Source: a virus. Taken from it: a stretch of DNA of 64,000 bases. Position numbers and translations under genes: made by a program. The notes beneath the pieces are model-generated. The model saw only the letters and a program-made list of their open reading frames with translations, was not told where the DNA came from and searched no databases. How positions within the stretch are numbered: the stretch's first letter is position 1; each line of letters begins with the position of its first letter. Below, piece by piece: positions 1,288-62,094 of the stretch. Where the stretch lies: the IMG/VR virus record IMGVR_UViG_3300012683_000008, positions 1 to 64,000 of that record, one strand, 5' to 3'.

Positions 1288-1812
1288 ATGGGGTGTTTCA
1301 GCGAGGAGAAGATCGCTGAGCTCATCAAGAACCAGGCAGTCTTCCTGATGCGAGGACTGCCTGGTTCAGGGAAGACGACGTGGGTGCGAAAGACCTTCGT
1401 CGGCAAGGACTACGGAATCTACTCGGCCGACGACTACTTCATGAAGGACGGCAAGTACGAGTTCAAGTTCGAGGAGGCCTCGAAGGCCCATGACTGGGTC
1501 CTGAGGCGCTTCTTGGATGGGCTCACGCAGCCGTATCTCGTGAATGGCCCCAGCGTGGTCGACAACACCAACCTGTTCGCTCTCGACATGGCACCGTACA
1601 TCGCCTTGGCCAGAGCGTTTCACAGGCCGTTCTGCATCGTGACCATCTACGAGAACCTCGAAGTGGCACAGAAGCGGAACCTCCATGGAATCGATCAGGC
1701 CACCTTCAACAGGAAGGCTGACTGGTTCGTTCACGAGAGGCTGCCGAAGTTCTGGCTGCCGTACCACCACGAAGTGAGAAATTCCGAGCTGGCTCCTGAG
1801 ATAAGCGGGTAG
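1288..1812 (+). CDS. AAA_33/N4BP2-like P-loop polynucleotide kinase
   Basis: MRGLPGSGKTT Walker A, SADDYF, VVDNTN and RNLHG motifs; GGAGG RBS before ATG 1288. Confidence 0.85.
   Translation: MGCFSEEKIAELIKNQAVFLMRGLPGSGKTTWVRKTFVGKDYGIYSADDYFMKDGKYEFKFEEASKAHDWVLRRFLDGLTQPYLVNGPSVVDNTNLFALDMAPYIALARAFHRPFCIVTIYENLEVAQKRNLHGIDQATFNRKADWFVHERLPKFWLPYHHEVRNSELAPEISG
1798..1805 (+). promoter_or_regulatory. Putative phage promoter motif GAGATAAG
   Basis: Member of the recurrent G(G/A)NATAAG family found upstream of plus-strand genes. Confidence 0.55.
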
Positions 1813-1849
1813 TGCAACAGGCACATTCAACTCTTCAAAGGAGATGGTC

Positions 1850-1969
1850 GTGATCTTCATCCTCGTGATGTTGTCGGCGTTCCTCTGGGGCGCTCGCAAG
1901 GGCTACATGCAGTGGAAGGCTCAACAGCCGGTCTATGTCGTCCAGCGCCGTAACGGCTGGAGGAACTGA
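1850..1969 (+). CDS. Small membrane peptide (39 aa), not in ORF track
   Basis: AAGGAG RBS, GTG start, hydrophobic N-terminus IFILVMLSAFLWG, followed by a terminator. Confidence 0.65.
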   Translation: MIFILVMLSAFLWGARKGYMQWKAQQPVYVVQRRNGWRN

Positions 1970-1971
1970 CC

Positions 1972-2000
1972 AAAAGGGGCCTCTCGCCCCTTCTTTAGCC
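1972..2000 (+). terminator. Hairpin terminator followed by TTTAGCC
   Basis: GGGGC-ctctc-GCCCC stem then TTCTTTAGCC. Confidence 0.65.
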
Positions 2001-2062
2001 CTCAGCAATAGGACAACAAGCTGAGGGCATAAGAATGGAGCATGAAGGTGTAGAGTATGACC

Positions 2063-2668
2063 TCAGTCGACTTCGACCTTTCGACCGAAGCCTGAGTCCT
2101 CATTCTTACCTGGCCGACCGAAGACGATGAACTCGACTCCGTCCCCATCATGCGAAGGTTCGAGGATGTCGCCATCTGGACCGTACGGGAAGTTCTTACG
2201 AACGATGCGGTAGGGCTTCACATCCTTGCGGCCCATGGCCCACTGCGAGAGCTCTTCTTGAGTCCTGAAGTGCAGGGTGAACTGCTGTCCGAGCTTGTCA
2301 CTGAAGAGCCCGACAGTGGACTTCCCACCCCGTGGGTCTGCCTCGATGACCCAAGCGAAGCCTTTCTCGACGTAGGTCGACAGCCGCTCCACGAGTGCTT
2401 TCGAGAAGACCTTGTCTTCGATCTGCTTGCTGGTAATGACGAGTCGATCTCGTTTCAAGATGTGGTCCACGGCCGAAGAGCCATTGAAGTTCCCCTCGCC
2501 AGCTTTGAACTCAGGTGCTCGTTTCGGGAAGACTGGAGAGCCGGAAGGAAGATCGCCGGTGGCCGGCACACGACGCAGTACGAAGTCGCCGTTCTCCAAC
2601 ACCCTCCGATAGGTGTAGGGCGTTTCGTCTTCAGCGGTCCTCGGAGAGATCAGGAAGCCCTGTGGCAT
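2063..2668 (-). CDS. Hypothetical protein
   Basis: 201-aa ORF with typical codon bias. Confidence 0.65.
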   Translation of the reverse strand: MPQGFLISPRTAEDETPYTYRRVLENGDFVLRRVPATGDLPSGSPVFPKRAPEFKAGEGNFNGSSAVDHILKRDRLVITSKQIEDKVFSKALVERLSTYVEKGFAWVIEADPRGGKSTVGLFSDKLGQQFTLHFRTQEELSQWAMGRKDVKPYRIVRKNFPYGPDGDILEPSHDGDGVEFIVFGRPGKNEDSGFGRKVEVD

Positions 2669-2798
2669 GGCGTCACAATATCAAGGGAAAGATGACGGCT
2701 CCACCCGTTTCAAGTGGAGCCGTCGAAGCCAGCAGTTAGGGGGAGGGGGGGGGACCTGACTGCGGCGACAAGAAGACTCTAACAGACGAGAGGAGCCC

Positions 2799-3344
2799 AT
2801 GGAACTGGACACGGTGATTGAGAGCATGAAGCAGGACAACGAGAAGTTGAAGCGAGAGCTGGACCGGTTCCTCAGTGCCTACCACGAGGAGAGCACTCTG
2901 AGGGTGAGTCGAGAGCCTTTCGAGCGGCTCGTCGACCTGATGCAGGTCATCGCTGTTCGACAGGACGAGCTTCCGTGTCCTCAGTGTGGGAGACCTCATC
3001 CTCCGGACTCTCAGCTCGTGAAGATGGCCTACATCAATGGAGATCCTGGGAAACGTCTTACCGTCGTTGGGATTGCACTACGGACGAAGACCATTCTCAT
3101 GGTCAACAAGACGGGCGAAGAGATGAAGGAGGACTGGAAAGAGGCTGGTGCGGCCGGTATTCCAGCACTGGCTCAAGAACTCCTCGGTGCATTCATCATC
3201 CGACCCACTCAGGTCACCCTCGAAGACCTGGCTGGCATCGGAGTACGGCCATTCCACATCGTTCGTTGGTTGAGGGCAGAGCTCGACCAGCACGACTTCC
3301 AGATGGCAGCGAGAAAGTCGACGCAGCACATGGCCCAGGCGTGA
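2799..3344 (+). CDS. Hypothetical protein with CxxC motif
   Basis: GAGGAG RBS; CPQCG. Confidence 0.7.
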   Translation: MELDTVIESMKQDNEKLKRELDRFLSAYHEESTLRVSREPFERLVDLMQVIAVRQDELPCPQCGRPHPPDSQLVKMAYINGDPGKRLTVVGIALRTKTILMVNKTGEEMKEDWKEAGAAGIPALAQELLGAFIIRPTQVTLEDLAGIGVRPFHIVRWLRAELDQHDFQMAARKSTQHMAQA

Positions 3345-3365
3345 AGAAAACCCCCTCAGGAATGA

Positions 3366-3373
3366 GAGATAAG
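3366..3373 (+). promoter_or_regulatory. Putative phage promoter motif GAGATAAG
   Basis: Recurrent motif, about 55 nt upstream of GTG 3427. Confidence 0.55.
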
Positions 3374-3426
3374 GTTCAGCGCAGAGAGCATTGAGCTTTT
3401 CTCGCCATTCCTTGAGGGAGGAACAC

Positions 3427-4092: not shown

Positions 4093-4100
4093 AGGTCAGT

Positions 4101-4132
4101 GCCTCCCCGCAAGGGGAGGCTTTGCCTTAGCC
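4101..4132 (+). terminator. GNRA hairpin terminator followed by CTTAGCC
   Basis: GCCTCCCC-GCAA-GGGGAGGC then TTTGCCTTAGCC, between convergent genes. Confidence 0.75.
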
Positions 4133-4137
4133 TTCCT

Positions 4138-4641: not shown

Positions 4642-4650
4642 GAGGAGCTC

Positions 4651-5486: not shown

Positions 5487-5498
5487 TCAGTAGATCCT

Positions 5499-6091: not shown

Positions 6092-6178
6092 GAGCTCTTG
6101 CATCTCGTCTTGAATGGGCTAAGAAGAGTTCTCGCTCTTGGTCATTTCGACTGAGACAAACGAAGAAGGATCTACCAA

Positions 6179-7351: not shown

Positions 7352-7390
7352 GTGGTTTCGATCAAGGACTGCTTCTCTGGTGTACGCCCT

Positions 7391-7430
7391 TACTCCGGAG
7401 GGATTCGAACCCTCACCGCGAAGGGAGCGG
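7391..7430 (-). other. tRNA-like 3'-half fragment (variable arm plus T-arm)
   Basis: Minus strand CCGC-loop-GCGG, T, then GAGGG-TTCGAAT-CCCTC; no matching 5' acceptor strand found. Confidence 0.45.
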
Positions 7431-7435
7431 CCAGC

Positions 7436-8140: not shown

Positions 8141-8184
8141 GTGTTCTCCTTAACCCGAGTCTGTCATCTTACGACAAGACCAGG

Positions 8185-31201: not shown

Positions 31202-31264
31202 GTGATTTAGACTCCGAATCTGAAGAGAGTCAGTCTGTTGGAGGGTAGTTGTTGGGAGGACAAG

Positions 31265-31948
31265 ATGGGAAGAACTTTCGTGACCTTCGAAGACGCCGCA
31301 AAGCTGCTGAAGTGTAGCAAACGCACAGTCCACAACTACGTCAAGAAGGGGCGGCTCCGAAAGGACGTCGAGGATGGAGAAGTAGTACTTCGGCGGGAAG
31401 ATGTCGAGCAGCTCGCTGAAGGACTGGGCTCAGACCTGCCCGCTCTGAACAACCGCACGCTGTTGGAGCTGCTGGGCAGGATCAAGACTCTGGAGATGAA
31501 GGTCTCCGTATTCCAGAAGATACACGGCATCGAGGAGCACCCACCCCTCCGTCCAGGCACGGACGAGGCCCTGAAGCTGGTGAGCAACGCAGAGTGGTAC
31601 CTCCAGAAGAAGGACATCACCTCACCGGAGATCGGTCTCTGGGTCTCGCTCTTCCAGCGCATGGATGAGCTCACCTTCCAGATGATTCACCGGGCAGGGG
31701 CCAAACCAGAGTTCTGGAAGACCCTCTTCGACCTCTGTCTCTACCTCATGGACTTCGTCTCGAACCCCAGGCGGTGCAAAGAGACCCGTACGTGGCTTGC
31801 CCACCACCTGGAGCTCAACGAGTGCAGGAAGTCCCTTCGATCGATCATCCTCCTGTGGGTGGAGCTGACCAGGGAGAGCCATACCAAGGGCCTGCACAAG
31901 TACCTGGGTGGGGGCAAAGAGGACCTTGCCCGTCGGCTGGGCAATTAG
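31265..31948 (+). CDS. HTH_17 (excisionase/MerR-like) DNA-binding protein
   Basis: TFEDAAKLLKCSKRTVHNYVKKGRL; GGGAGGA RBS. Confidence 0.8.
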   Translation: MGRTFVTFEDAAKLLKCSKRTVHNYVKKGRLRKDVEDGEVVLRREDVEQLAEGLGSDLPALNNRTLLELLGRIKTLEMKVSVFQKIHGIEEHPPLRPGTDEALKLVSNAEWYLQKKDITSPEIGLWVSLFQRMDELTFQMIHRAGAKPEFWKTLFDLCLYLMDFVSNPRRCKETRTWLAHHLELNECRKSLRSIILLWVELTRESHTKGLHKYLGGGKEDLARRLGN

Positions 31949-31960
31949 ACCCCCTCCTCC

Positions 31961-31968
31961 GGGATAAG
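31961..31968 (+). promoter_or_regulatory. Putative phage promoter motif GGGATAAG
   Basis: Recurrent motif, intergenic, upstream of ATG 32025. Confidence 0.6.
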
Positions 31969-32024
31969 GACTTGGGCCGGATAAACCTGCCCATGTTCAA
32001 TCCCCATTGGGAGGAGAGTCGAAG

Positions 32025-34756: not shown

Positions 34757-35400
34757 ACATGTCACCAGTCAGAGCTGGCCTCGATGAGGTCGGCATCGGT
34801 GCTCTCTCGGGCCCGTACATCGCCGCCGTTGCCGTCTTCCGAGAACGAGATCTTCTTCTCCTGCCACATGGAGTGAAGGACTCGAAGAAGACGACTGAAG
34901 AACAGAGAGGCAACCTCTACCTCCCCATCTGTGCAGCAGCCTGGGACGTTGGGCTTGGCTGGGCCTGGCCATGGGAGATCGATCGATACGGCCCCTCTGA
35001 AGCCCTTCAGATGACGTACCGCAGAGCACTTGGAGAACTGAGGGTCCAGTACGACGTCCTGGTGGTCGACGGCAACATCGGGGTCCAGAGTTTCAAGGAC
35101 CTATACCGCCCTGGGCGCATCATCGTTGAGCCGAAAGCCGACGTGAACCACCGAGAAGTCTCGGCCGCATCGATCATCGCCAAGTGGGCCCGAGACGAGA
35201 TGATGATTTCGTACTCGAAGAGGTTCCCTCAGTACGCCTGGAACGAGAACAAGGGCTACGGCACGAAGTCTCATGAAGACGGTATAAGGAAGTACGGACT
35301 ACTCGTAGACCCTCAAGACACGAGTAGGTACCTTCACCGGAGACACTACTGCAAGAAGTTCATGTATGAGACAAACAACGGTACCACCAGGGTTCGATAG
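34753..35400 (+). CDS. rnhB: Ribonuclease HII
   Basis: GLDEVG..LSGP, DSKK, VDG, KAD, AASIIAK, NKGYGT..H. Confidence 0.93.
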   Translation: MNMSPVRAGLDEVGIGALSGPYIAAVAVFRERDLLLLPHGVKDSKKTTEEQRGNLYLPICAAAWDVGLGWAWPWEIDRYGPSEALQMTYRRALGELRVQYDVLVVDGNIGVQSFKDLYRPGRIIVEPKADVNHREVSAASIIAKWARDEMMISYSKRFPQYAWNENKGYGTKSHEDGIRKYGLLVDPQDTSRYLHRRHYCKKFMYETNNGTTRVR

Positions 35401-40402: not shown

Positions 40403-41470
40403 CTACTTGGCGAACAGGGACGACGAGGTGATGTCAGGGGTCGTTGGGGAAAGGGGAGGGCCGGTTGGAGCTCCAGGCGACGTTGTCGAGTGCATGTGGT
40501 TGTCGAGCCATGTCAGAAGAGGAGGGGCGAGAGCAACTCCCTTGGTCCCACCGCCGGCGTAGAGCTTTGGCTTGCAGTTCACCTGGCCCGAGCCTTCGAT
40601 GTTGACGTCGCCTCCTGATGACTTGATGTCGACACCGTCGCTGCCCTTGATCTCCGCTTTCTTCTTTGAGTCGACGTTGAAGTTGTCTTCCGTCTTGATG
40701 GTGATGGCCTTCTTTACCGTGAGCTTGAACTCCCCGTCGATCACCAGCTCAGCGTCCTTCTTCGTCGTCAGCTTGAGCTTGCCGTCTTTACCAAGACTTA
40801 GCTCGATCTGTTTCTCGGCGCCGCTCTTGCCCTTGTCATTGATGAGAAGGGTGAGAATACGGTCGTCTCCATCACCGTGGGAACCGATAAGAAGCTTGGC
40901 AATTGGCTCCTCGTCGTCTGCGAACTCTCGGGCTGCGATCAAGAGAGAGGCTGGTCTCTTCCCGTCAGTCGTGCTCTCTTCTCGTTCCACTTTCCATTCG
41001 AGGTCACCACCGAGAGTATGGAGACCGTAGTTCTCACAGAAGTCTTTGATGGTGTTGGCGATGGGCAGGAAGATCCTCTGGCACAGAGGCCCAGCCCCTA
41101 TCTGTACGACTCCACCTCTCCGCAGAAACAGAAAGTTCTCGTCACGGGTGCCCATGTAAATGTCACCCGGATTGAGGTCTTTCTTCTTCGCCCTCGCATC
41201 TCCGTCTTCGGACGCTGGCCCCCATGCGAGGATGAAGGGCCGGTTGTGATCTGAGGGCGAACAGATCCAACAGAGGCTGCCCACCTCCGGCATGAAGTAG
41301 ATGCCCTCACCGTTCGAGTAGTGCTGGTACGGCGTGGCGAACTTGATGCCGGTCAGAGGCTTCTTCGAGAACTCGGTGGCAGCAGAGACCGTGTAGGTCG
41401 TGATGTCGACGTCCAGGATGATCCCGGACTCGATCCTGGCTGCAATTACCTCAGACTGAGTCGGAGTCAT
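40403..41470 (-). CDS. Baseplate central spike (gpV/gp5-like)
   Basis: OB-fold MPEVGSLC, beta-helix repeats, C-terminal HxH (NHMH) metal tip and PTGPP. Confidence 0.75.
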   Translation of the reverse strand: MTPTQSEVIAARIESGIILDVDITTYTVSAATEFSKKPLTGIKFATPYQHYSNGEGIYFMPEVGSLCWICSPSDHNRPFILAWGPASEDGDARAKKKDLNPGDIYMGTRDENFLFLRRGGVVQIGAGPLCQRIFLPIANTIKDFCENYGLHTLGGDLEWKVEREESTTDGKRPASLLIAAREFADDEEPIAKLLIGSHGDGDDRILTLLINDKGKSGAEKQIELSLGKDGKLKLTTKKDAELVIDGEFKLTVKKAITIKTEDNFNVDSKKKAEIKGSDGVDIKSSGGDVNIEGSGQVNCKPKLYAGGGTKGVALAPPLLTWLDNHMHSTTSPGAPTGPPLSPTTPDITSSSLFAK

Positions 41471-44400
41471 CAGTACACGTACTTGGCTTTGCTCGGCGGA
41501 GCCTTACCGAACTCGGCCCCATACGCTACACCAGGAATCGGGTGAGTGCCGTGGAGGTCGGACTTCATGTTCGTTGCCACACCCTCCTGAAGGGTCGAAC
41601 GAATCTGCTGGAAGTTGAGCCGGGCCATCCAGTCCTTCGACCGCATGGGCAACTGGTTGACCGACTGGAGCATCGGCCGGTGAACGACCTGCCTGGCACC
41701 CTTTGCCATCTCCCGGTTTCTCTCTTCGACCTTCGAAAGGGCGATGATGTCTCCAGGCGTGTAGTCCGAGTCTCCTGGCTCTACGACCTTGGTGAGGTTC
41801 GTGAGGGCCCTGACCACCGTCTCGATGTTCCTCCGCCGCACGCCCTCTTTCTTGTAGAGGCCATTGTAGAGCTCGTTCGTGAGGTGGTTCTGCACGTTGG
41901 ACATGTCGGTGTACTTCAGGAGGTGCAGAGGGTTGACGTGACCTTCTGAAATCGCATCACCCTTCTTCACCTCGGACCCGATCTGAACCATGAGCGGCAG
42001 CTTCACCGGCACGTAGTGACGCTCGTCACCGATGAAGATGTCGTGACCACCGGCCGCATCCTTCTTGATGTCCGTCACCTTGCCGGTCACCTTCGAGAGG
42101 GTCGCCTCGTTCTTCAACTTCTTTGGCACCTTGAGGAGGTTGTTCAGCTTCTCGAAACGGCTGACCGACATCGCTCCTCTCGTGCTGCCGGCGATGCCGC
42201 CGGAGTGGAATGCGTCCATCGCCATCTGCACAGCCGGTTCACCCATCGACTGGCCAGCGAGGATGCCGACGTTCGTGCCCTCTGAGTGGAGGGTTCCGTT
42301 CTCGTTGAGACCGAAGCACTTGGCGCAGATGCCTTCGCCCTTGTGGCACTTGAGCGGAGAACGAACGACGACCTTGTCGTGCTTCGAGTTCTTCAGCCGG
42401 CTCCAGATCTCTGGAGTGACGAGCGTTCCGGCCTTGATGACCTTGCCGTCTTTCGTCTCGTACGGCTTGGCCAAGAAGCGATCGTGGATGTCCTCGTGTT
42501 CGAGCGGCATCAGAACGCCGTGGGTAGTACCGCAGTCCTCAGACGTGATGAGGTAGTTCATCGTCGAGTTGAGGATCTCCTTCGACATCGCTCCAGGCTC
42601 GCTGGTGCCCTGAGCACGCTGGAGGGTTCCCTTGCGAGCGCCGTGCTGTGCCAGCCAGTAGTCGCCGATGTCCAGACCTTCGGAGTAGCTCCTGGTCACA
42701 GGCGTTGGGATGGTCCGGTTGGTCGCATCCTGCATCAACATCGGAGCAGCGATCATCTGTCGGAGCTGCTCTGGCTTTCCACGAGCCCCGGAGTAGACCA
42801 TCGTGGCAAGACGGTTCGACGTACCAGCGAGCTGGTGCCGAGCTGAGGCATCGAGCTCTTCGGTCGCCTTCGAGTAGATACTGACGAGCTTCGCATCGAG
42901 CTCGTCCTTGCCCTTGACGGTCTTCTTGGCCTGATCCGCTTCCTTGTGGGCGACGGCCAGGATGCGGTCTCGACCTTCTAGGGGCTTCAGGTCCTTCAAG
43001 CCGATGGAGAACGCCGTCTGGTAGGAGTGCTCGTTGCCGAGATCCTTCAGGGCGTCGATGGCCTGAGCGAAGTGCTCTGAATGGTTCTTGGCGAGATCCG
43101 TCGCCATGTGGCTCATCGTCTTCTTGTTGATCTCGTAGCTCGGATCGTGAAGAACACCCTCACGCATATGCATGGTCTTCGGCAGCCACGCAGCGATGCG
43201 CATGCGGCCGAGAGTGGTGTCCTTGCCGTTGAGCTTGATGATGTCCGTGTGCTCGATCTCGTGCTTGTCAGCAGCACGGTCGACTCCGGCACCGTCAGTG
43301 AAGCTCTTGGTCGTCTTCTTGCCCCACTTCGACATCAGGTGGAGACCGAGCATTGCTTCCTGGCTCGGCGTGTACATGACGCTGCCCGTGGTCGGGGAGA
43401 AGAGGTTCCTCGACGGGAACATCTTCTTGGCCTCGTCCACTGCCTCACGAGACAGAGGCACAGTACCGGCCATAGTGTCACCGTCGAAGTCGGCGTTGAA
43501 ACCACCGGTGACGAGCGGGTGAATCTGAATGGCCTTGCCTTCGATGAGCTTCGGCTGGAACGCCATCACCGAGAACTTGTGGAGTGCAGGGTCACGCTTC
43601 AGGAGGATGGGGCGGTCCTTCACCACCTCTTCGAGTGCCTTGAAGGCGAAGTCGGTCCCGTCCTTCATCTCCTTGCGAGCGACGAGAGGATCCATGCCCC
43701 AGCGTCCGAGCTGGGCGACCACGAAGGGCTTGTAGAGCTCCATCGCTGCGTTCTTCGGCAGGCCGACCTGATCGATGTGCAGGTTCGGCTCGGGGATGAT
43801 GGTGGAACGGATCGAGAGGTTCTGCCGCCTCTTGACGAGCTTCGACTGGAAGTAGGCGTCCTTTGGCTGGTCGCCTTCTCCAGAGCCACCGAGAGTCTCC
43901 AGGATGCCCTTGAGCTTCCTCCGACCGCTCGACTCGTCGTAGACGGGTCGGTAGTCGCCGACTGCCTGGAGTGCTTTGTAGGCGTCCCAGAGAGCTGACT
44001 GGAGCGGCTTCCGATCGCTCTCCGTGAAGACCGCTGGGTCCCAGTCCTTGAGAGCCTGGTTGACGATGGCGAAGTTCTTGTAGTGCTGAACGATGGGCGG
44101 AGTGTTCACGTCCCCACGGTCTGTCGGCGTCATCGGCCGGAAGACCGGCGGGATGATCGGCAGGTAGTGGGTCATGTACGCCTCAGCGGGCGACATGCCG
44201 TTCTCTTTCAGAGCGGTGAGGAACTTCACCTTCTTGTGGAGACGATCGAGCTGAGCTCCCTTCACCGTCTTGAGCCGCTCCTTGGCCCCACGAAGTTCGG
44301 CATCGACGTCAAGCTTCTGCAATGCGGACTTGATGGCCGCACCACCGGTCTTGCCGTTGAGGTCCTGCTTGCCGGCCATGATGGCGTCGATGTCTTCGAG

Positions 44401-47400
44401 CTTCAGGTGCAGCAAGGTCGGAACCGGACCTGGTCGGTTGCCGGCGCCCACGAAGATGGGAGACGGCATCGGCTCCGCCATGCGGATGAAGGACCACTTC
44501 TCGCCCTCGATCCCGCCCGTGGCGTGAGGGTCGTAGAGACCACCCTTCTCTTCCTTCAGGTCCTTCGCACGGAGGGTGTACTTGCCCTTGGTGATTTCGT
44601 TCTTGCCGTTGTTGGCGAGACGAAGAGTGTCCTTGTCCGTGAGAGGCAAGAGACGGATCTCCGTCCCCTCCTTCTGCACGTTGATGCCTGAGCCTTTGAG
44701 CAGCGCCTCGAACTTCTTGTACGAGAACGGGACCTGAGGAGGAGGCGGCTCGAACCCCTGCTGGATGCGGACCCAGAAAGAGTCGTCCTGCTTGTCGGAC
44801 TTGTACGTCGCCATCTCTCGAACGTTGTGCCGAGCTCCGTGTCCCAGCATCGAGTAGAGCTCAAGCTGGCCGAAGCCCTGCCCACCGTGGGCACCGCCCT
44901 TCACCGGCTGACGATCGAGGCTGTAGGTCAACGGCTTGTTGTCGAGTGTCGTGCCACCGCCACGAACGCTGAGCTTCTTCTCGACCTGGTGACGCAGCTT
45001 CAACAGGTACTGCGGCCCGACCAGGACCGAGCCCATCACCCTCGACGGGTCCTTCGGGTCGAAGACGTGCTCTTCATCGTTGATGCCGTGGTGCTTGAGC
45101 TCATCAACAACCTGAGAACGGTAGTCGTGGTTCGGTCCTGAGAAGTTGTTGACGACATACGGCTTGCCCGTCTTCTCGGCGATCTTTCCGGCGGCGGTCT
45201 CCAGAAGTTGTCCGACGTTGATGCGTGTAGGAACTCCTGAAGGGTTGAGAAGAACTTCGAGGGGCTTGTGCTCACCTTTGGGATCCTTCGTGAACGGCAT
45301 CTCGTGATCGGGAATGATCTGCGTGATGATGCCCTTGTTTCCGTGACGACCAGAGAGCTTGTCTCCGACCACCATCTGCTCTTCGGTCCTGACGTAGACC
45401 TTCACGCCCTTGCCGTTCGGCTGATGAACGACTCGAACCACCTCGCCCATGTGGTCCTCGTCCCAGACGAGGCTCTTGTCCTTGTAGGCGAAGAACTTGT
45501 TGTAGCGAGAGCCGAGGGCCGCCAAGGCGCTGCCGCCCTTGGTGTTGGTGTTCTTGGACAGGGCAGTGATCAGCACTGAACCAGGCTTCACCTTCGTGCC
45601 GACCTTGATGACACCGTGCTCGTCGAGAGAGTCGAACTCCTCTTTCGTCATCTCCGTCGCCCGACGGGAGGCGAAGGCGTGCCAGGACTTCTTGTTGACC
45701 GTATCGTTGTCCGGATCGATCTCCAGGTTCTTCCGGTACAGGTGCTCGGAGGTCAGCTTCTTGGCTGCCGTCTCTGAGATGACGATGCCGTCTTCGAAGT
45801 TGTAGCCCTTGTACGGCATGTACCCGACCCGGAGGTTCGTTCCGATCGCGAGCTGGCCGTCTCTGGTGAAGTTCGTATCGGCCAGGAGCTGGCCTTGCTT
45901 CACCGAGTCTCCGACCTTCACCTGGGGAGTCGAGTGCATCATCCCCTTGTCGTCGTTGAGCGGGAAGTGGTTGTAGAGGTGGACTTCGTGCTTGCTCTTC
46001 CCCTCGCCGATGACGATGAAGTTCGGGGTCACGCTGGTGACCTTGCCGGAGACTGGAGAGTTGATGGAGCTGAACGAGCCGATGACCTTCTCGAAGGTGC
46101 TGGCTCCTTCCGTCTTTGATTGCACCAGTGGCGCCTCACGATGCTTCAGTGAGATGGCCTGCTCCATCTGCTTGTCGGCCATCGACACACGGTTTCCTTG
46201 GTCGGTTGGTAGGAAGGGAATGAGGTTCGAGGTGTAGTCGAAGAGACCCTTGGCCGAGGGAAGGACGTACGTCGCCTCCTTGAACGGCCGGGTCTCGATG
46301 GCCCCGCCTGGAAGCTTCATCTTAACGTTGGCGGAGATGGGTACTGGCTTGCCCTTCTCCCACTTCACCTGGTCAGGAAGCACAGCAGACGCCTGGTGAA
46401 ACGCTGGCACCCCCACGTACTCGATCTTGCCGGAGGCGATGGAGAAGGCGGGTGTCTCCAGCTCCTTGCCGTTCTTCCGAACGTTGGCTGCCAGGTAGAG
46501 CGTGATGCCTGTGCGCTCTGACTCCGGGGTGTGCATCGGGTCGAGGAACCCGAAGTGGCTCGGGTTGATGACCTGCATCTGCTCGGTGATGGCGTTCTTG
46601 TTCTTGATACCGCCGAGGTCAGAGAAGAGCGTCGTCTTCCGGTGACCCGCCATCATCTGGAGCGGGTTGGTCTGGTCGTACCGCTCGATGATCTTGGTGC
46701 CGCCGCTGAGGAAGAAGGCGTTGATGGGCTTCTTGAACAGGTCAGGAGAGACGATCTCCGTGATGGTCTTCTTGTGGTCGACCGTCTGACGCAGCTTCAC
46801 CTTGATGTTCTTGGCGTTCCTCGCCAGCATCTCGGGAACGAAGTCCTCGACAGAGACGACCTCCTTGAAGGCGAGGCTGTCACGGTCATCCGGCTCCTGG
46901 GTGCCACGAGAGACGCCCAGAATCTTGTTGGCTGCCAACTTGAGCACTTCGCCGTTCACCTGAGTGAAGGGCTTGCCCAGCGTCACCTTCGTGGTGTCAG
47001 GAAGCAGGGCCGTGCTGTCGAAGAAGTGGTGAACGTAGGCGTGGTGACCGGCGTCGTCCTTCGGTACCTCAGCGTCCTCTTCGTTCGTCCTCTTGAAGAA
47101 GTCCTGAAGAGCCTTCTCGTTCTTCTTGTCGAACTTGTTGGAGTGGAAGATCTCCGCTCCCCACTGGTGCTCCAGCTCGTCGTCCGAGACGCCCATCGAC
47201 TTCATGATGGGGTAGAGCGGAATGTGAGCTGAGCCGTACTTGAACGAGAACTTCTTCGTGCGAGGGTTCAGGTGGATGGAGAAGTTGCTGCCCAGCTTGC
47301 GAGCCAAGTTGAACTCAGATTCGAGCTCGCCGTTCTCCTGCACTCGGGCGTAGACGCCTGACTTGAGGCGGAAGAGGTGGTCGACCTGGTACTCGTTGCC

Positions 47401-47709
47401 GCTGACGATGAAGCCGTAGCGGCTGGTGAGCTTCGGAATGGTGGCCAGTGTGGCCTTCTTCTTGTCGATGACCTGCCCTGTCGTCTTGTCGATGAGAGAC
47501 AGGTTGGCGACGACCGGCACGCCCCAGGTGCGCTCGTTGTCCTTGGCGTCGGCCTGGGACTTGATGTCACCGATGTCGAGCTTGTCGTCGACTCCGATGC
47601 TGTCGAGAACGATCTTCTGTCGCTTGCCCTCGAACGGGAAGTACGCACCGATGGAGCTGACGACGTTCTTCTTCAGCGTCTCGAAGCTTGCTTCTGGGGT
47701 GATGTCCAC
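41470..47709 (-). CDS. rpoBC: Fused beta-beta' multisubunit DNA-directed RNA polymerase
   Basis: beta motifs GYNFEDG, GDKLSGRHGNKG, NPSGVPTR.N.GQ, GGQGFG; beta' motifs RDPALH, NADFDGD, GARKG, RSPLKC..CAKCFG, GEPAVQMAMDAFHSGG. Confidence 0.97.
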   Translation of the reverse strand: MDITPEASFETLKKNVVSSIGAYFPFEGKRQKIVLDSIGVDDKLDIGDIKSQADAKDNERTWGVPVVANLSLIDKTTGQVIDKKKATLATIPKLTSRYGFIVSGNEYQVDHLFRLKSGVYARVQENGELESEFNLARKLGSNFSIHLNPRTKKFSFKYGSAHIPLYPIMKSMGVSDDELEHQWGAEIFHSNKFDKKNEKALQDFFKRTNEEDAEVPKDDAGHHAYVHHFFDSTALLPDTTKVTLGKPFTQVNGEVLKLAANKILGVSRGTQEPDDRDSLAFKEVVSVEDFVPEMLARNAKNIKVKLRQTVDHKKTITEIVSPDLFKKPINAFFLSGGTKIIERYDQTNPLQMMAGHRKTTLFSDLGGIKNKNAITEQMQVINPSHFGFLDPMHTPESERTGITLYLAANVRKNGKELETPAFSIASGKIEYVGVPAFHQASAVLPDQVKWEKGKPVPISANVKMKLPGGAIETRPFKEATYVLPSAKGLFDYTSNLIPFLPTDQGNRVSMADKQMEQAISLKHREAPLVQSKTEGASTFEKVIGSFSSINSPVSGKVTSVTPNFIVIGEGKSKHEVHLYNHFPLNDDKGMMHSTPQVKVGDSVKQGQLLADTNFTRDGQLAIGTNLRVGYMPYKGYNFEDGIVISETAAKKLTSEHLYRKNLEIDPDNDTVNKKSWHAFASRRATEMTKEEFDSLDEHGVIKVGTKVKPGSVLITALSKNTNTKGGSALAALGSRYNKFFAYKDKSLVWDEDHMGEVVRVVHQPNGKGVKVYVRTEEQMVVGDKLSGRHGNKGIITQIIPDHEMPFTKDPKGEHKPLEVLLNPSGVPTRINVGQLLETAAGKIAEKTGKPYVVNNFSGPNHDYRSQVVDELKHHGINDEEHVFDPKDPSRVMGSVLVGPQYLLKLRHQVEKKLSVRGGGTTLDNKPLTYSLDRQPVKGGAHGGQGFGQLELYSMLGHGARHNVREMATYKSDKQDDSFWVRIQQGFEPPPPQVPFSYKKFEALLKGSGINVQKEGTEIRLLPLTDKDTLRLANNGKNEITKGKYTLRAKDLKEEKGGLYDPHATGGIEGEKWSFIRMAEPMPSPIFVGAGNRPGPVPTLLHLKLEDIDAIMAGKQDLNGKTGGAAIKSALQKLDVDAELRGAKERLKTVKGAQLDRLHKKVKFLTALKENGMSPAEAYMTHYLPIIPPVFRPMTPTDRGDVNTPPIVQHYKNFAIVNQALKDWDPAVFTESDRKPLQSALWDAYKALQAVGDYRPVYDESSGRRKLKGILETLGGSGEGDQPKDAYFQSKLVKRRQNLSIRSTIIPEPNLHIDQVGLPKNAAMELYKPFVVAQLGRWGMDPLVARKEMKDGTDFAFKALEEVVKDRPILLKRDPALHKFSVMAFQPKLIEGKAIQIHPLVTGGFNADFDGDTMAGTVPLSREAVDEAKKMFPSRNLFSPTTGSVMYTPSQEAMLGLHLMSKWGKKTTKSFTDGAGVDRAADKHEIEHTDIIKLNGKDTTLGRMRIAAWLPKTMHMREGVLHDPSYEINKKTMSHMATDLAKNHSEHFAQAIDALKDLGNEHSYQTAFSIGLKDLKPLEGRDRILAVAHKEADQAKKTVKGKDELDAKLVSIYSKATEELDASARHQLAGTSNRLATMVYSGARGKPEQLRQMIAAPMLMQDATNRTIPTPVTRSYSEGLDIGDYWLAQHGARKGTLQRAQGTSEPGAMSKEILNSTMNYLITSEDCGTTHGVLMPLEHEDIHDRFLAKPYETKDGKVIKAGTLVTPEIWSRLKNSKHDKVVVRSPLKCHKGEGICAKCFGLNENGTLHSEGTNVGILAGQSMGEPAVQMAMDAFHSGGIAGSTRGAMSVSRFEKLNNLLKVPKKLKNEATLSKVTGKVTDIKKDAAGGHDIFIGDERHYVPVKLPLMVQIGSEVKKGDAISEGHVNPLHLLKYTDMSNVQNHLTNELYNGLYKKEGVRRRNIETVVRALTNLTKVVEPGDSDYTPGDIIALSKVEERNREMAKGARQVVHRPMLQSVNQLPMRSKDWMARLNFQQIRSTLQEGVATNMKSDLHGTHPIPGVAYGAEFGKAPPSKAKYVY

Positions 47710-47824
47710 GTTGTGCCCTTACCCTGCGCCAGGTGAGGAAGTCACGATCGACCAGACCCTACCCTTGCGCAGCAAGGGTCCTCAGGCCCGTCGGCAGGGT
47801 ACATGAAAACAGACTCTTGCCCAA

Positions 47825-47832
47825 GGTATAAG
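47825..47832 (+). promoter_or_regulatory. Putative phage promoter motif GGTATAAG
   Basis: Recurrent motif heading a plus-strand cassette. Confidence 0.6.
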
Positions 47833-47871
47833 GTCAGAGTCGTAGAGTAACAGCTCTGCGACGGAGGGATC

Positions 47872-56583: not shown

Positions 56584-56681
56584 CAACTGCTCCTTGGAGG
56601 GAGGGAATCGAGCATTTCAGTGTAGGTCCTTCCCCTCGGAACGGTCAACGAATTCCCCCGGACAAGAACGAATGCTTTCAC

Positions 56682-56689
56682 GGGATAAG
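56682..56689 (+). promoter_or_regulatory. Putative phage promoter motif GGGATAAG
   Basis: In the divergent intergenic region heading the replication genes. Confidence 0.6.
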
Positions 56690-56725
56690 AGGCAAGCGGG
56701 AATCATTAAACTTGAAGGAGGTGGA

Positions 56726-57349: not shown

Positions 57350-58822
57350 ATGAAGCTGACCCTGCCGTTCAAAGACCCAACGAGAGCGTACGTCTCGAAC
57401 CAGCTCTGGCTCCCCAAGGAAGGAAACGTCCTTGGTGGGGTCAGAGTCGGTCCGATTCAAAAGGCTCTTGAGTTCACTGTGGGTCGAGCGGGGCAACTCG
57501 ATGTTCTGAAGATGTGGGAAGAGTCTAGGGGTCACGTCATCTGCCCCCGAGAGTTCCTTCCGACGTCGGAGTACGTGAAGTACAAGTTCCCCTTCGTCGA
57601 TCTTAGGCCTCGGTTCCAGGACCGCTACTTCCAAGACCTCGTAGAGCCGAGGAACGAAGAGCAGGTCAAAGCTTGGGAGGCGCTGAGTCGCAACGACAAC
57701 GGCATCCTCAACTTGGGCTGCGGCAAGGGGAAGACGAAGCTCTCTCTGAAGAAGATTGCTCAGAAGGGAACGCCCACTCTGATCATCGTTCCGGATGGCG
57801 GGATGCTCGACCAATGGCGGCAGTCGATTCAAGGAAGCGACAGAACCCCACAGGGTCTGCGCTTCGACGGAGGCATCGGTCTCGTCCACGAGAGTCACTT
57901 CGACTGGAGAGGCCGTCCTCTGGTGTTGGCGAACGTTTACAACTTAGCCCTCAAGATCCGAGATGGAAGAGTTCCTGAGGAGTTCTTCAGGTACTTCGGA
58001 CTTGTCGTCTACGACGAGGTCCACCAGATGGGGGCGCCAGTCTTCAGTCAGTGCGCCTGGCCCTTCTATGGAGACCGCATCGGCCTCACCGCAACGGTGC
58101 AGAGAGAAGACGGGCTCGACCCCATCTACCGCTACCACATCGGAGAGCCCTTCTACTCCGACCTCGTGCAGCCCCTCATTCCTCTGATCTACTTCCAGAA
58201 GACACCAGTCAGGCTCGACATCGCTCCGACCATCAGGAACGGTTCCGTTCACCTCGGGCTGTTGCGAACGTCACTGGGCAGGGACCTGACCGGGAACACG
58301 TATCGCTACTACGCCATCAAGGAAGCGCTGGACCAGGGCAGGAAGATCCTCTGCCTCTCGCACTCGAAGGACCAGCTCTACCTGATGCACTCGCTCTTCC
58401 CAGGCTCCGGACTCCTCGTTCAGGAGACACCGACGAACCGGCGGCTGGAGATTCTACGGAACAGCCAGGTCTGCTTCGCCATCTCACGGCTCGGGGACAA
58501 GGGCGTAGATGATGACCGCTTGGACACGTTGTTCTGGCTCACCCCGTTCAAGTCTCTCATCTCCTTGCAGCAATCCATCGGTCGAGTACAAAGGTCCCTC
58601 GAAGGCAAGAGGCATCCTGTGGTGGTCATCTTCGAGGACAACCTCGTCTCGACGCTGAAGAACCTGTGCCTGAGACTGAAGCAGACGTTCAGGCAGTGGC
58701 AGTTCAACTTCGATGTACTTCAACCGGGACGGTTCCAGAGGGAGCTGCCCCCAGAACTGAGAGCAATCTATGAGCAACGATTCCAGCAACTCCCCCAACG
58801 CGGCGACGCAGACGACGACTGA
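57350..58822 (+). CDS. Superfamily 2 DExH helicase
   Basis: GCGKGKT, YDEVH, GLTAT, QSIGRVQR. Confidence 0.92.
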   Translation: MKLTLPFKDPTRAYVSNQLWLPKEGNVLGGVRVGPIQKALEFTVGRAGQLDVLKMWEESRGHVICPREFLPTSEYVKYKFPFVDLRPRFQDRYFQDLVEPRNEEQVKAWEALSRNDNGILNLGCGKGKTKLSLKKIAQKGTPTLIIVPDGGMLDQWRQSIQGSDRTPQGLRFDGGIGLVHESHFDWRGRPLVLANVYNLALKIRDGRVPEEFFRYFGLVVYDEVHQMGAPVFSQCAWPFYGDRIGLTATVQREDGLDPIYRYHIGEPFYSDLVQPLIPLIYFQKTPVRLDIAPTIRNGSVHLGLLRTSLGRDLTGNTYRYYAIKEALDQGRKILCLSHSKDQLYLMHSLFPGSGLLVQETPTNRRLEILRNSQVCFAISRLGDKGVDDDRLDTLFWLTPFKSLISLQQSIGRVQRSLEGKRHPVVVIFEDNLVSTLKNLCLRLKQTFRQWQFNFDVLQPGRFQRELPPELRAIYEQRFQQLPQRGDADDD

Positions 58823-59270
58823 ACTCGATGAGCTCAAGAAAGAGCTCAAGGAGAAGGGCATCGACACGGAGAAGCTCGCCGTCCTCATGATCGGAGGGGA
58901 GCAGATTCTCGGCGAGGTCGTTCACGAGGATCGGGACATCATGACGGACGATCGCCTGGTCGGGAACCTCGTCAGGCTCAAGAACCCGAAGCGGTACATG
59001 CGGCTTCAGCGGATGACTCAGGACGGATCGGCAATGTCCGTCGACGTCTTCGTGGGCGGCCTCGATCTCATCGAAGACGATGGGTCCGAGATTCAGGTGC
59101 ACGCACTCGGTGGCTACTGGCTCAGGAAGCTCGGCCTGAACTCGCAGCGGGAGCTGATGAAGACGCTGGTGATGTTCTTCAAGCACAGGACGATGGCTCG
59201 GGCCGCCAAGGCCGGTCTCATTACGCCCGACGGGCGTCTCAACATCGGAGGGATGGGTGGCAAAGGCTAA
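58770..59270 (+). CDS. Hypothetical protein
   Basis: Coupled ORF with typical codon bias. Confidence 0.65.
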   Translation: MSNDSSNSPNAATQTTTELDELKKELKEKGIDTEKLAVLMIGGEQILGEVVHEDRDIMTDDRLVGNLVRLKNPKRYMRLQRMTQDGSAMSVDVFVGGLDLIEDDGSEIQVHALGGYWLRKLGLNSQRELMKTLVMFFKHRTMARAAKAGLITPDGRLNIGGMGGKG

Positions 59271-60057
59271 GAAGGAAGAAGCAGTTCCCCTCCCTTACTT
59301 GGAGGGAGACGGTGATGAACAGCTCCAGGGCCTCTACGGTCAGTGGTACGCCTGTTCGAAGTGCCCGCTGCACGTAGAGAGACCGGGACCAGACGTTGTC
59401 TTCGGAGAGGGCAAGGCGAAGGCTCGCATCCTGTTGGTCGGAGAGGCCCCTGGTGAGGAAGAAGAACGCACGGGCATCCCGTTCCATGGACCCTCGGGTC
59501 AGCTCTTGAACCAGATGCTGGCTCTCGTGTCTGACGACCTGGAAGTCCAGGAGATCAGCAAATGGTACGACAAGGCGGCTCGGACGAAGGAGAACGTGCG
59601 GCGCTTCCACGAAGTCGTTGCCGAGTGGAGGAAGAAGGAGTTCTTCATCACCAACGTCGTCTGCTGTCGGCCACCGGAGAACAGGCAGCCGACCAACCCA
59701 GAGATCAAGTCCTGCTCTGAGCGCCTCAGGGCGATCATCAACATCGTCGACCCGCTGGTCATCATCAGCATCGGCAAGACGGCTCTCGAAGCTCTGGTTC
59801 ACAGAGTGACCGAGATCACCCAGAAGCGTGGTCAGCTCCATGAGATCGAAGTCATGGGGCGAGTCATGCCGGTGAAGTACCCGGTGATGCCCATCCTTCA
59901 TCCCTCGTACCTCCTGCGAAAGGCGGACTGGAAGGTGAAGGATGGTGACTACGCCAAGACGGTGAAGGACCTCTACAAGGCGATGCGTCTGAAGGACGAG
60001 CTCATGCTCCACAACTTCGGCACGCCCATTCCAGAAAGGGTGGATCCCACCAGATGA
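59257..60057 (+). CDS. Family-4 uracil-DNA glycosylase (Fe-S)
   Basis: CSKC, GEG, GEAPG, CRPPENR, HPS. Confidence 0.92.
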   Translation: MAKAKKEEAVPLPYLEGDGDEQLQGLYGQWYACSKCPLHVERPGPDVVFGEGKAKARILLVGEAPGEEEERTGIPFHGPSGQLLNQMLALVSDDLEVQEISKWYDKAARTKENVRRFHEVVAEWRKKEFFITNVVCCRPPENRQPTNPEIKSCSERLRAIINIVDPLVIISIGKTALEALVHRVTEITQKRGQLHEIEVMGRVMPVKYPVMPILHPSYLLRKADWKVKDGDYAKTVKDLYKAMRLKDELMLHNFGTPIPERVDPTR

Positions 60058-60365: not shown

Positions 60366-60373
60366 GGTAAGCC

Positions 60374-60610
60374 ATGAGTGGCGACATTCCGTTCTACGTA
60401 ACCGTCATGGGGAAGAGGTTCTACGAAGGGACCGTCCCCAAGCTCGTGAGAGAGCTCGAACGTCTCAACGACAACCTGGAGAAGTTCATCAAGGAGGGTA
60501 AGAAAGATGGAAAAGCAGGAGCACCAGCAGAGGATCGACGAGTACACGGAAGCGGTGAAGAAGTACAAGGAGATGGAGGAACACTTCCTCAGTGGCGGAG
60601 TGGCTGTTGA
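60374..60610 (+). CDS. Hypothetical protein
   Basis: GAGG RBS; T.MGKRFYE.T.P.L. Confidence 0.55.
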   Translation: MSGDIPFYVTVMGKRFYEGTVPKLVRELERLNDNLEKFIKEGKKDGKAGAPAEDRRVHGSGEEVQGDGGTLPQWRSGC

Positions 60611-61106
60611 GATCAACCGCTTCGCCGGTGGCGACGCAGCTCGGGTCAAGGAGCAGTTCCAGGCCTACGTGCAGCAGCTTCAGGCTGCTCTCGAAGACTC
60701 GAATGCCAAGCTCCAAGCTGCCAAGAACTCCTTCCGGCAGCTCGTGCAGCTCACGCCCATGCAGCAGCGTGGGCCTGAGGGGAAGGCCACCAAGATCGAC
60801 TACGGCCCTCTGAACGTCACCTCGGCGACCAAGAGGTGGCTCGACGCAACGTCCCTTCTGCAACTGGCCGCCAAGCACCAGATCCTGGACCGTCTTCTGG
60901 CCCTGACCACCTTCGACAAGGAAGGCAAAGAGTTCAAGCTCGTCGAGCAGCAGTGGATCATCAACTACGAGCACGTCTACAAGTGGCTCAAGGAGAACAA
61001 GCTCGACAACATCATCGACGGCTCCTACGACGAGAAGGAAGAGACTCCTCGTGTCGGTGGTGCCAAGCCTCTCGCCTTCCTGGGAGAGAAGATCGAGAAG
61101 TCGTGA
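60507..61106 (+). CDS. Coiled-coil hypothetical protein
   Basis: GGAGG RBS, strong codon bias. Confidence 0.7.
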   Translation: MEKQEHQQRIDEYTEAVKKYKEMEEHFLSGGVAVEINRFAGGDAARVKEQFQAYVQQLQAALEDSNAKLQAAKNSFRQLVQLTPMQQRGPEGKATKIDYGPLNVTSATKRWLDATSLLQLAAKHQILDRLLALTTFDKEGKEFKLVEQQWIINYEHVYKWLKENKLDNIIDGSYDEKEETPRVGGAKPLAFLGEKIEKS

Positions 61107-61315
61107 AGAACATCGACATCAGCTACACGCGGCGACAGTTCGATCTGATGATGACAGCCCTGGCCGCTCTGAGTGAGCACGACCTGGCAGTAGCCGAGCA
61201 CGCCAAGGGTCGGAAGTCGGCTCGTCGTGCGGTCAGGTTCTTTCTCGCCAGGAAGAACAGGGCTGCGAGGCTTCAGGTGAAGATGCTCCTGACCAAGCAG
61301 AAGCAGAAGAGGTGA
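61103..61315 (+). CDS. Small basic hypothetical protein
   Basis: GTGA overlaps on both sides. Confidence 0.55.
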   Translation: MKNIDISYTRRQFDLMMTALAALSEHDLAVAEHAKGRKSARRAVRFFLARKNRAARLQVKMLLTKQKQKR

Positions 61316-61686
61316 CGATGCATACCTACGTCAAAGAGCCCAGGTTCCATGTCACCTGTCAGCTCGAAGCACCAGACATGAAGACCGAAACACTCATCTT
61401 CGAAGGCGAAACCCCGAGGGAACTCATGGACCAGTACAAGCAGTTGATCGGTGACGGCAATGCGAGCGTGTCTGTGTCGACGGACATGAGCATCAAGAAG
61501 TTCGGCGCAGGTTCTTCGGCGATGGTGACGGTCTCACTGACCTGCAACCAGGATCAGCAGACCATCGCTGCGGCCATCGACCTGGCGGCGCAGACGGGCC
61601 GCTACTACGCCAAGGCGTACCAGCAGCAGGCCGAAGGAGAACTCCGTACTCTGCTCCAGTCGCAGGGTCGGCCAGTGGAGTTCTGA
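61312..61686 (+). CDS. Hypothetical protein
   Basis: Coupled ORF. Confidence 0.65.
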   Translation: MTMHTYVKEPRFHVTCQLEAPDMKTETLIFEGETPRELMDQYKQLIGDGNASVSVSTDMSIKKFGAGSSAMVTVSLTCNQDQQTIAAAIDLAAQTGRYYAKAYQQQAEGELRTLLQSQGRPVEF

Positions 61687-61997
61687 TGACGAAGCTCGAA
61701 CCCATCAGCAAGATCGACGCAGTCGACATCGGCGAGGTGACGATCAACCTCGCCATGCAGGGCAACTTCACCATGATGATCGCCACTGCTCACTACGCTC
61801 TCGTCGTCACTGAGACGGGAGTCAGAGTCGGCAAGGGCACTGTGTCTTCCTGGAGCCCTGCGACTCAGCAGAAGGTCAAGGACCTCCTCGCGGCGATGGA
61901 AGGTGACATCTGCGTCGAGGTGTTCGGGAAGGGACCTCAACCTGTTGAGGGTGCGGTCCAAGACACCCCCAATTCAGACGGCATCCCAGGGCTCTGA
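61686..61997 (+). CDS. Hypothetical protein
   Basis: TGATG overlap. Confidence 0.65.
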   Translation: MTKLEPISKIDAVDIGEVTINLAMQGNFTMMIATAHYALVVTETGVRVGKGTVSSWSPATQQKVKDLLAAMEGDICVEVFGKGPQPVEGAVQDTPNSDGIPGL

Positions 61998-62086
61998 TTG
62001 ACAGGGCCTTTCCGTCTGGTACTCAAGCGCCGCTCACCTCCTGCAAGAGGGGAGACTACTCGGCGACCAACTTGCTCCACTTGTCC

Positions 62087-62094
62087 GGGATAAG
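62087..62094 (+). promoter_or_regulatory. Putative phage promoter motif GGGATAAG inside a long hairpin
   Basis: Recurrent motif upstream of the DnaB-like gene. Confidence 0.6.

Follow-up and report, generated by a model that had tools for sequence, protein, structure and literature searches.

A bipartite GGnATAAG promoter class in a lineage of large uncultured phages, and the phage sigma factor and single-chain RNA polymerase that may read it

The IMG/VR virus record IMGVR_UViG_3300012683_000008 is a linear viral contig of 79,797 bp, with a GC content of about 59% and a CheckV completeness estimate of 43%; its first 64,000 nucleotides are the stretch analysed here and are referred to as the window. 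On the plus strand of the window, the word G(G/A)NATAAG recurs ahead of non-structural genes, and the first-pass annotation took it for a short promoter that is read by a fused RNA polymerase (RNAP) encoded on the minus strand. Is the word a promoter, how much of the signal does it make up, and which enzyme recognises it? Comparison of related genomes leads us to predict that GGnATAAG forms the downstream of two blocks in a genuine promoter, here called class I, which has been conserved in evolution and marks replication and accessory genes. The layout of class I is, as far as its sequence tells, that of a sigma70-family promoter with a non-canonical -10 element, and we propose, with a probability of roughly 0.65, that it is read by the phage's own divergent sigma70-family protein together with the single-chain RNAP. 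The motif, its two blocks, the rules of strand and position that it follows, its conservation, a second promoter class and the sigma of the relatives were observed directly; what we infer, from the evidence set out below, is which sigma and core read class I, where transcription starts and when.

The ATAAG word and its flanks

The eight strict matches to G(G/A)NATAAG in the window were all found where the first-pass annotation had placed them, all of them on the plus strand and none on the minus strand, compared with 3.6 matches expected in shuffled sequence with both strands combined. Over the whole contig the word occurs 10 times on the plus strand and never on the minus strand, and ATAAG alone occurs 13 times against one. 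The same fused RNAP is encoded in 18 IMG/VR contigs of 50-65% GC, with 53-66% identity, five of which are complete or near-complete genomes of 177-209 kb. In five large relatives, the copies on the motif strand and on the other strand number 15 and 0, 19 and 1, 32 and 1, 25 and 1, and 30 and 5, respectively, whereas the word read backwards, which served as a control, is balanced between the strands. In every large relative the motif strand is the strand opposite the RNAP gene; the RNAP strand carries about half of the genes and about two-thirds of the coding bases. The contig itself is syntenic with 5-98 kb of one large relative, and a search of the phage collection returned no close DNA relative of it.

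Alignment of 60 sites on the word, with the flanks left unconditioned and positions counted from the first G of the word, brought out parts of the signal that the first-pass annotation did not contain. Upstream, there is a CAA at -19 to -17 (with its two A positions conserved in about 50 of the 60 sites), followed by a purine at -16 and a pyrimidine at -4; downstream, there is a purine at +8 and the triplet T-R-G at +12 to +14. The spacer sequence between the two blocks is variable. The functional form is CAA(A/G)-N15/16-GG(C/G/T)ATAAG-R-N3-T-R-G, with an invariant G where sigma70 needs T, and the idea of a short promoter made up of one block therefore gives way to a bipartite promoter with -35/-10 spacing. 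A leave-one-genome-out position weight matrix (PWM), built on four genomes and scanned on the fifth with a threshold of at least 10 bits, gave 115 matches on the motif strand of five related genomes and a single match on the other strand (8/0, 21/0, 28/0, 30/0 and 28/1 per genome). The CAA begins at -19 in 62 of the 115 sites, at -18 in 15 and at -20 in 5. As many as 95 of these matches (83%) are intergenic, while intergenic DNA makes up only 7-14% of each genome, and the distance to the next start codon on the same strand peaks at 35-65 nt. By its positional statistics, the genome-wide distribution, which the first-pass annotation had wanted checked, is non-random: almost all sites are on one strand, and most are intergenic and ahead of same-strand starts.

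When the A that opens ATAAG is taken as -11 of a bacterial promoter, the GG falls at -14/-13, the invariant G at -7, the CAAR block at -33 to -30 and a conserved G at +1. The GG adjoins the position where region 3 of sigma70 reads TG. Two blocks at a fixed -35/-10 spacing are the signature of a sigma70-family factor, and class I has them; within its -10 element the A at -11 is invariant, the T that sigma70 promoters have at -7 is replaced by G in essentially all strong sites, and the base at -12 is free (C in 26, G in 23, T in 8 and A in 3 of the 60 sites). A scan for sigma70 promoters (at least 9 of 12 matches to TTGACA-N17-TATAAT, with T as the last base) called no class I site between positions 47000 and 63000; it did call a minus-strand TTGACC-18-TACACT promoter in that range. 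We also considered whether the upstream CAA could be merely the reverse complement of a divergent TTGAC -35 element. The two do overlap at the RNAP locus in relatives, but CAA is equally frequent at tandem sites that have no divergent gene, and this explanation was rejected.

The view that the word belongs to a promoter that is unlike sigma70 promoters and specific to plus-strand non-structural units is strongly supported by the strand bias, the position of the sites, the conservation of flanks and of orthologous sites, and the retention of rare codons described below. The absence of the motif ahead of the minus-strand structural genes was borne out as well. In the mechanism that we propose, GG(C/G/T)ATAAG would be the -10 region of a phage-specific bipartite promoter with CAA(A/G) at about -33 to -30, transcription would probably start at the conserved purine 5-6 nt past the word, and the class would be confined to the strand that carries the replication and accessory genes.

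Individual sites, terminators and conservation

Six sites in the window, all on the plus strand, are supported as class I promoters by a PWM derived solely from the other genomes. The highest score, 26.5 bits, belongs to GCAAttag-N-GGGATAAG at 31942..31975 (word at 31961), which lies 56 nt before the ATG at 32025. The promoter CAAGAA-N14-GGGATAAG at 56663..56696 (word at 56682; 19.1 bits) lies 45 nt before the ATG at 56735 and heads a unit with a DNA helicase gene (57350-58822) and a DNA-polymerase-like gene (59257-60057), both on the plus strand and identified with PHROGs. The word GGTATAAG occurs in two of the promoters: at 47806..47839 (word at 47825; 17.6 bits), where it lies 39 nt before the ATG at 47872 and the promoter is divergent from, and overlaps, that of the RNAP operon, and at 35262..35295 (word at 35281; 16.5 bits), inside the 3' part of gene 34759-35400 and before the open reading frame (ORF) 35366/35429-35644. 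Another GGGATAAG promoter at 62068..62101 (word at 62087; 11.6 bits) precedes a plus-strand DnaB-like helicase gene (TTG 62153 or GTG 62219 to 63586; PHROGs) and has orthologous sites in the relatives G001 and G005. The sixth, CAATAG-N15-GGCATAAG at 2007..2040 (word at 2026; 13.7 bits), stands directly after a hairpin with a TTTAGCC tail. A distance of 35-80 nt to a plus-strand start codon, which had been noted for most copies of the word, holds for five of these six sites and fails for the one at 2026, which faces the 3' end of a minus-strand gene. That gene, 2063-2668, is supported by its G+C content at third codon positions and by a homologue in G004, and the plus strand has no ORF until 2799; the promoter at 2026 may give rise to an antisense transcript.

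Two further plus-strand sites, both with the word GAGATAAG, are borderline. One, at 1779..1812 (word at 1798; 7.6 bits), lies at the end of gene 1288-1812 and 44 nt before a 39-codon ORF; the other, at 3347..3380 (word at 3366; 7.3 bits), is intergenic and lies 53 nt before the GTG at 3427. They are ranked as borderline because, in the relatives, GA variants are mostly intragenic, whereas sites with the GG core are nearly all intergenic. With the PWM threshold lowered to at least 6 bits, this genome has 11 matches on the plus strand against one on the minus strand. The variant GGGCTAAG at 6116..6123 on the plus strand, which had been counted with the motif, is present in the sequence, yet it scores -4.6 bits, has CTT in place of the CAA at -19, and was rejected as a member of the class.

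Class I promoters are closely associated with terminators. The hairpin before the promoter at 2026 (1972..2000, plus strand; a fold with a TTAGCY tail) closes the preceding plus-strand unit, and terminators of the same type, i.e. a fold, a short T run and TTAGCC or TTAGCT, are found on the plus strand at 4100-4132, 35650-35682 and 50255-50285, as well as at 66160-66206 and 78330-78362 of the contig. The predicted folds range from -16 to -28 kcal/mol and end in TTAGCC or TTAGCT, and the TTAGCY sequence is itself biased between the strands (11 against 2 in this genome and 33 against 9 in G004). In the relatives, many class I promoters begin only 2-7 nt past the TTAGCC or TTAGCT tail, forming a compact terminator-promoter junction. 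As class I sites often stand directly behind such terminators, the motif strand would be cut into a series of promoter-terminator cassettes.

Each of the four complete relatives examined, whose proteins are 50-60% identical, has an orthologous site at the gene junctions that correspond to 31961, 47825 and 56682. When these intergenic regions are aligned, the only conserved blocks besides the Shine-Dalgarno sequence and the divergent promoter are gCAA and GGnATAAG. The site opposite the RNAP gene, about 150 nt from the RNAP start, is kept in nearly all of the 18 IMG/VR relatives. Beyond the window, a class I site at 75385-75420 of the contig (word at 75404) is embedded in the conserved gene 75142-75591, where the encoded protein reads ..S-R..R-Y-K... 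There, TCA is used for the serine and TAT for the tyrosine in all five genomes, which keeps CAA and TATAAG at the right spacing, although TCA makes up 4-17% and TAT 5-23% of their codon families (joint chance about 1e-5 for each). This retention points to selection on the DNA itself, and the embedded site is likely to be an internal promoter.

The conservation extends to a cultured phage. In the Salmonella phage Arash, whose RNAP is about 31% identical to that of this lineage, GGNATAAG occurs 36 times on one strand against 7 times on the other, and 31 of the 36 copies read GGTATAAG. These copies often have CAAT ahead of them at the same spacing, and they lie in short gaps upstream of non-structural genes and tRNAs annotated on the reverse strand. 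The free base at -12 shows a preference in individual genomes, for C in G004 and for T in Arash.

The candidate sigma factor and core enzyme

The candidate core enzyme is the single-chain beta-beta' RNAP of 2079 amino acids (aa), encoded on the minus strand at 41470..47709, which contains the Pfam domains Rpb2_6, Rpb2_3, Rpb2_7 and Rpb1_2-5 and is present exactly once in each of the genomes G001-G005. The alignment of its beta' part with bacterial beta' includes the clamp-helix region, the main docking site for sigma. The sigma factor was found only via gp10 of Arash; the Pfam model Sigma70_r2 misses the real sigma of the relatives. Homologues of gp10, 281-307 aa long, are encoded in four complete relatives (that of G005 was found by tblastn), and a profile finds one more in G002. 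The profile search returned exactly one sigma in each of the four complete genomes G001-G004, and the four sigma genes that were placed on gene maps lie in a virion-strand block. The homologues match Pfam Sigma70_r3 above its cut-off and align to residues 136-326 of RpoS; they also align to the C-terminal RpoD, FliA/WhiG and SigB/F/G models, in all cases far below the curated cut-offs. FliA/WhiG is the best match for Arash gp10 and is also among the matches of the phage sigmas, but with 31 bits against a cut-off of 189.6, and the RpoD and RpoS models score equally. In purified Arash virions, beta is the most abundant protein, and both beta' and the sigma-annotated gp10 are present as well (PMC10585845).

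We propose that class I would be recognised by the lineage's own sigma, through its regions 2-4, in partnership with the single-chain RNAP at 41470-47709. The specificity most likely lies in the sigma, and the retained clamp helices together with the Arash virion proteins make the fused RNAP a plausible core enzyme. The virion genes, including the RNAP gene and, in the relatives, the sigma gene, would be transcribed from the opposite strand under promoters read by the host. Should the virion carry both RNAP and sigma, as it does in Arash, class I promoters would be the early ones.

A number of points weigh against this proposal. The plus-strand unit heads at 2799, 5864, 31265 and 34451 have no class I site, degenerate forms included. 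No sigma gene was found on the contig, where the Pfam models Sigma70_r2, r4 and r4_2 gave only sub-threshold helix-turn-helix (HTH) noise (at 13-93, in the HTH_17 gene at 31283 and at 78516); the neighbours of the RNAP gene (40403-41470, 37101-37991 and 36403-37101) do not resemble a sigma, nor do the two genes at 7436-8787 (234 aa and 200 aa), and the sigma gene would lie about 40 kb past the contig end, as extrapolated from synteny with the relatives. The start site is predicted from sequence, namely from T-R-G at +12 to +14, and the gene maps come from our simple codon-bias caller, which makes the distances to start codons approximate. As regards the enzyme, either the phage core or the host core could be the partner of the sigma, and on the question of alpha and omega subunits, the searches covered sigma domains only. 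The early and late timing is affected by the location of the RNAP gene and, by strand, of the relatives' sigma gene in virion-strand operons: since the promoter of the RNAP operon is of the host type, the infection must at some point involve the host enzyme.

The same sigma might instead redirect the host core RNAP, as T4 gp55, SPO1 gp28 and phiEco32 gp36 do, leaving the phage RNAP to transcribe other genes, e.g. those of the TTGACC/TACnCT class. Docking of the sigma on a bacterial core is conceivable, since its regions 2-4 align to bacterial RpoS, RpoD and FliA, and hijacking of the host core is what the literature commonly describes for phage sigmas (PMC7824862). We nevertheless consider this arrangement unlikely, given that RNAP and sigma are kept together, one each, in every complete genome examined, that the phage RNAP retains the clamp-helix sigma site, and that sigma, beta and beta' are all found in Arash virions (PMC10585845). 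Moreover, the motif does not vary among phages with GC contents of 50-65%, one Salmonella phage included, and therefore follows the phage, not the host. A host sigma could also act alone on what would be weak host promoters, either sigma70 with TATAAG as its -10 element or a factor of the sigma28 type, whose consensus is TAAA-N15-GCCGATAA. Class I has the geometry of bacterial promoters, GGTATAAG contains TATAAG, a 5/6 match to TATAAT, and the ATAA core, the G/C-rich bases that precede it and the A-rich -35 region recall sigma28 promoters. What renders a host sigma improbable is the detail of the signal: the base at -12 is free, the last base is always G, the -35 element is CAA and not TTG, no class I site between 47000 and 63000 passes the sigma70 scan, and the spacing is 1-2 nt off the sigma28 consensus. 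In addition, the same genomes use good TTGACC-N17/18-TACnCT promoters on the other strand, and class I is conserved in genomes that differ widely in GC content, and hence probably in phages of different hosts.

Readings in which the word is not a promoter fare worse against the same observations. It might be bound by a phage regulator, such as the HTH protein of gene 31265-31948, act at the RNA level in 5' leaders, or be a polar DNA motif that has nothing to do with transcription; an HTH_17 protein is indeed encoded beside one of the sites, and the strand polarity is like that of Chi or KOPS. We regard all of these as very improbable, because the word has no dyad symmetry and belongs to a pair of blocks whose -35/-10 spacing is fixed and which are followed by a conserved purine where the start is expected, because many sites lie less than 10 nt past a terminator, which leaves no room for another promoter, and because, for a polar DNA motif, one would not expect 83% of the sites to lie between genes at a fixed distance from start codons. 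A chance or compositional effect, i.e. an AT-rich word in GC-rich DNA, could appeal to the small number of copies in the window, as 2 of 100 shuffles reach eight, but it is already refuted by the confinement to one strand, the 115 to 1 result of the out-of-genome matrix, the conservation of orthologous sites and the retention of rare codons.

Recognition by the phage's own sigma and single-chain RNAP has partial parallels in several known systems. The T4 late promoters (TATAAATA) read with gp55, and the promoters of SPO1 gp28 and gp33-34 and of phiEco32 gp36, likewise have a consensus that is unlike that of the host, marks one gene class and depends on a phage sigma-type protein; these sigmas ride on the host core, whereas each genome of the present lineage also has one complete single-chain beta-beta' core of its own. 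Promoters of sigma28 (FliA/WhiG, group 3) share with class I the A-rich -35 region, the G/C-rich extended -10 element followed by ATAA and a similar spacing, but the class I spacing is 1-2 nt shorter and its word ends in G, and the relation would be one of resemblance rather than of membership. Extended -10 promoters of sigma70 (TGnTATAAT) also have a two-base element upstream of the -10 with A at -11, and the phage sigma has region 3; class I differs from them by GG at -14/-13 instead of TG at -15/-14, by the free base at -12 and by G at -7.

Among phage polymerases, RNAPs of the phiKZ and AR9 type use short single-block signals near the start site. These jumbo-phage enzymes resemble the system proposed here in that a cellular-type RNAP of the phage reads phage-specific signals and is packaged in the virion for the transcription of early genes (PMC7598289, PMC13282480). 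They consist of four to five polypeptides in two paralogous sets with no sigma recognisable by sequence, whereas here a single chain of 2079 aa is found with a sigma homologue in the relatives and a bipartite signal. The lineage is also unlike the single-subunit RNAPs (T7-like, or N4 with its hairpin promoters), as its polymerase is of the two-barrel beta/beta' type and its motif consists of two short blocks. The lineage also resembles the mReC Caudovirales (Weinheimer and Aylward 2020, PMC7481178) and Arash (PMC10585845), which are large tailed phages with beta and beta' homologous to cellular RNAP; Arash shares its RNAP, terminase, sigma and the GGTATAAG word with this lineage. Promoters are mentioned in neither PMC7481178 nor PMC10585845, and sigma is not mentioned in the mReC paper (PMC7481178). 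In the literature, we found no description of a CAA-N16-GGnATAAG consensus, nor of sigma or promoters in mReC phages. According to reviews, the cellular-type phage RNAPs studied so far (phiKZ, AR9, crAss-like and P23-45) work without a sigma that is recognisable by sequence.

A one-chain beta-beta' core, a sigma that is very divergent yet recognisable, and a clean consensus, found genome-wide, with G at -7 occur together in this lineage. To our knowledge, all housekeeping sigmas need T at this position. With the consensus, transcription units can be mapped at once in uncultured phages of 130-210 kb, which form a widespread group; it also provides a defined DNA substrate for the biochemistry and structure of a minimal bacterial-type holoenzyme, and promoter, sigma and polymerase would be an orthogonal set that could serve as a tool. 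The presence of the word in a cultured phage, Salmonella phage Arash, makes the idea directly testable.

Virion operons, the RNA polymerase locus and gene layout

The virion genes have a second type of promoter, here called class II. At the three operon heads examined, the class II promoters are, judging by their elements, of the ordinary form TTGACC-N17/18-TACnCT and should be readable by the host holoenzyme. All three lie on the minus strand. TTGACC-N18-TACACT at 56619..56648, found by the consensus scan and kept in four of four relatives, serves the virion operon that starts at 56583; TTCCCA-N18-TACCCT at 31242..31271, whose -35/-10 pair is conserved in five genomes, heads the head/tail operon 7436-31201; and TTGGGC-N17-TACCCT at 47796..47824 is the promoter of the RNAP operon, which in relatives has a counterpart at the same place in the form TTGACC/TTGCCA-N17/18-TAYCCT or TACTCT. 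The -10 boxes of these virion-strand promoters are all TAC(A/C/T)CT, and not a generic TAnnnT, in phages of 50-65% GC, which may reflect either orthology or a second specific recognition.

At the RNAP locus (47796-47839), a class I and a class II promoter face away from each other, and their back-to-back overlap is contained in about 45 bp. In the window, the class II -35 element abuts the GGTATAAG of class I, and in relatives the two -35 elements overlap as GTCAACGAAAG / CTTTCGTTGAC. Mutual exclusion of the two enzymes at 47796-47839 is possible. The leader of the RNAP gene contains a conserved minus-strand hairpin at 47755..47789, GGCYCGA..ACCYC..TGCG..GRGGTAGRGCC, which was identified in an alignment of 13 relatives and shows compensatory changes in five of its seven predicted pairs. 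The hairpin loop holds TGCGC(A), and a second copy, (T)GCGCA, lies beside the Shine-Dalgarno sequence, toward the RNAP start at 47709. The self-complementarity of TGCGCA would allow the two copies to pair, which suggests a putative control of RNAP translation.

A broader scheme, which we put forward only tentatively and think somewhat doubtful as a whole, would join these elements to the proposed phage holoenzyme. A self-contained holoenzyme delivered with the virion, made up of an alpha-less single-chain core and a private sigma that tolerates G at -7 in its -10 pocket, would start the infection from class I promoters without the host, while the host RNAP would make the virion genes. If that were so, occupancy of the RNAP locus by one enzyme would exclude the other, as class I and class II overlap within about 45 bp, and this overlap together with the leader hairpin would form a feedback switch on RNAP synthesis.

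The minus strand of the contig carries virion genes, including those of the major head protein (23022-24143), the large terminase (32591-34411) and the portal (50960-52906), as well as the RNAP gene; the plus strand carries the helicases, the DNA-polymerase-like gene and many small ORFs. ARAGORN called no tRNA genes within the window; the sequence GGAGGGATTCGAACCCTC at 7390-7435 resembles the reverse complement of a tRNA T-arm and may be what is left of a tRNA. The plus-strand gene 31265-31948, at the divergent junction with the head/tail operon, encodes an HTH_17/MerR-like DNA-binding protein and is kept in all relatives; its start codon (31265) overlaps the -35 element of the head/tail operon promoter.

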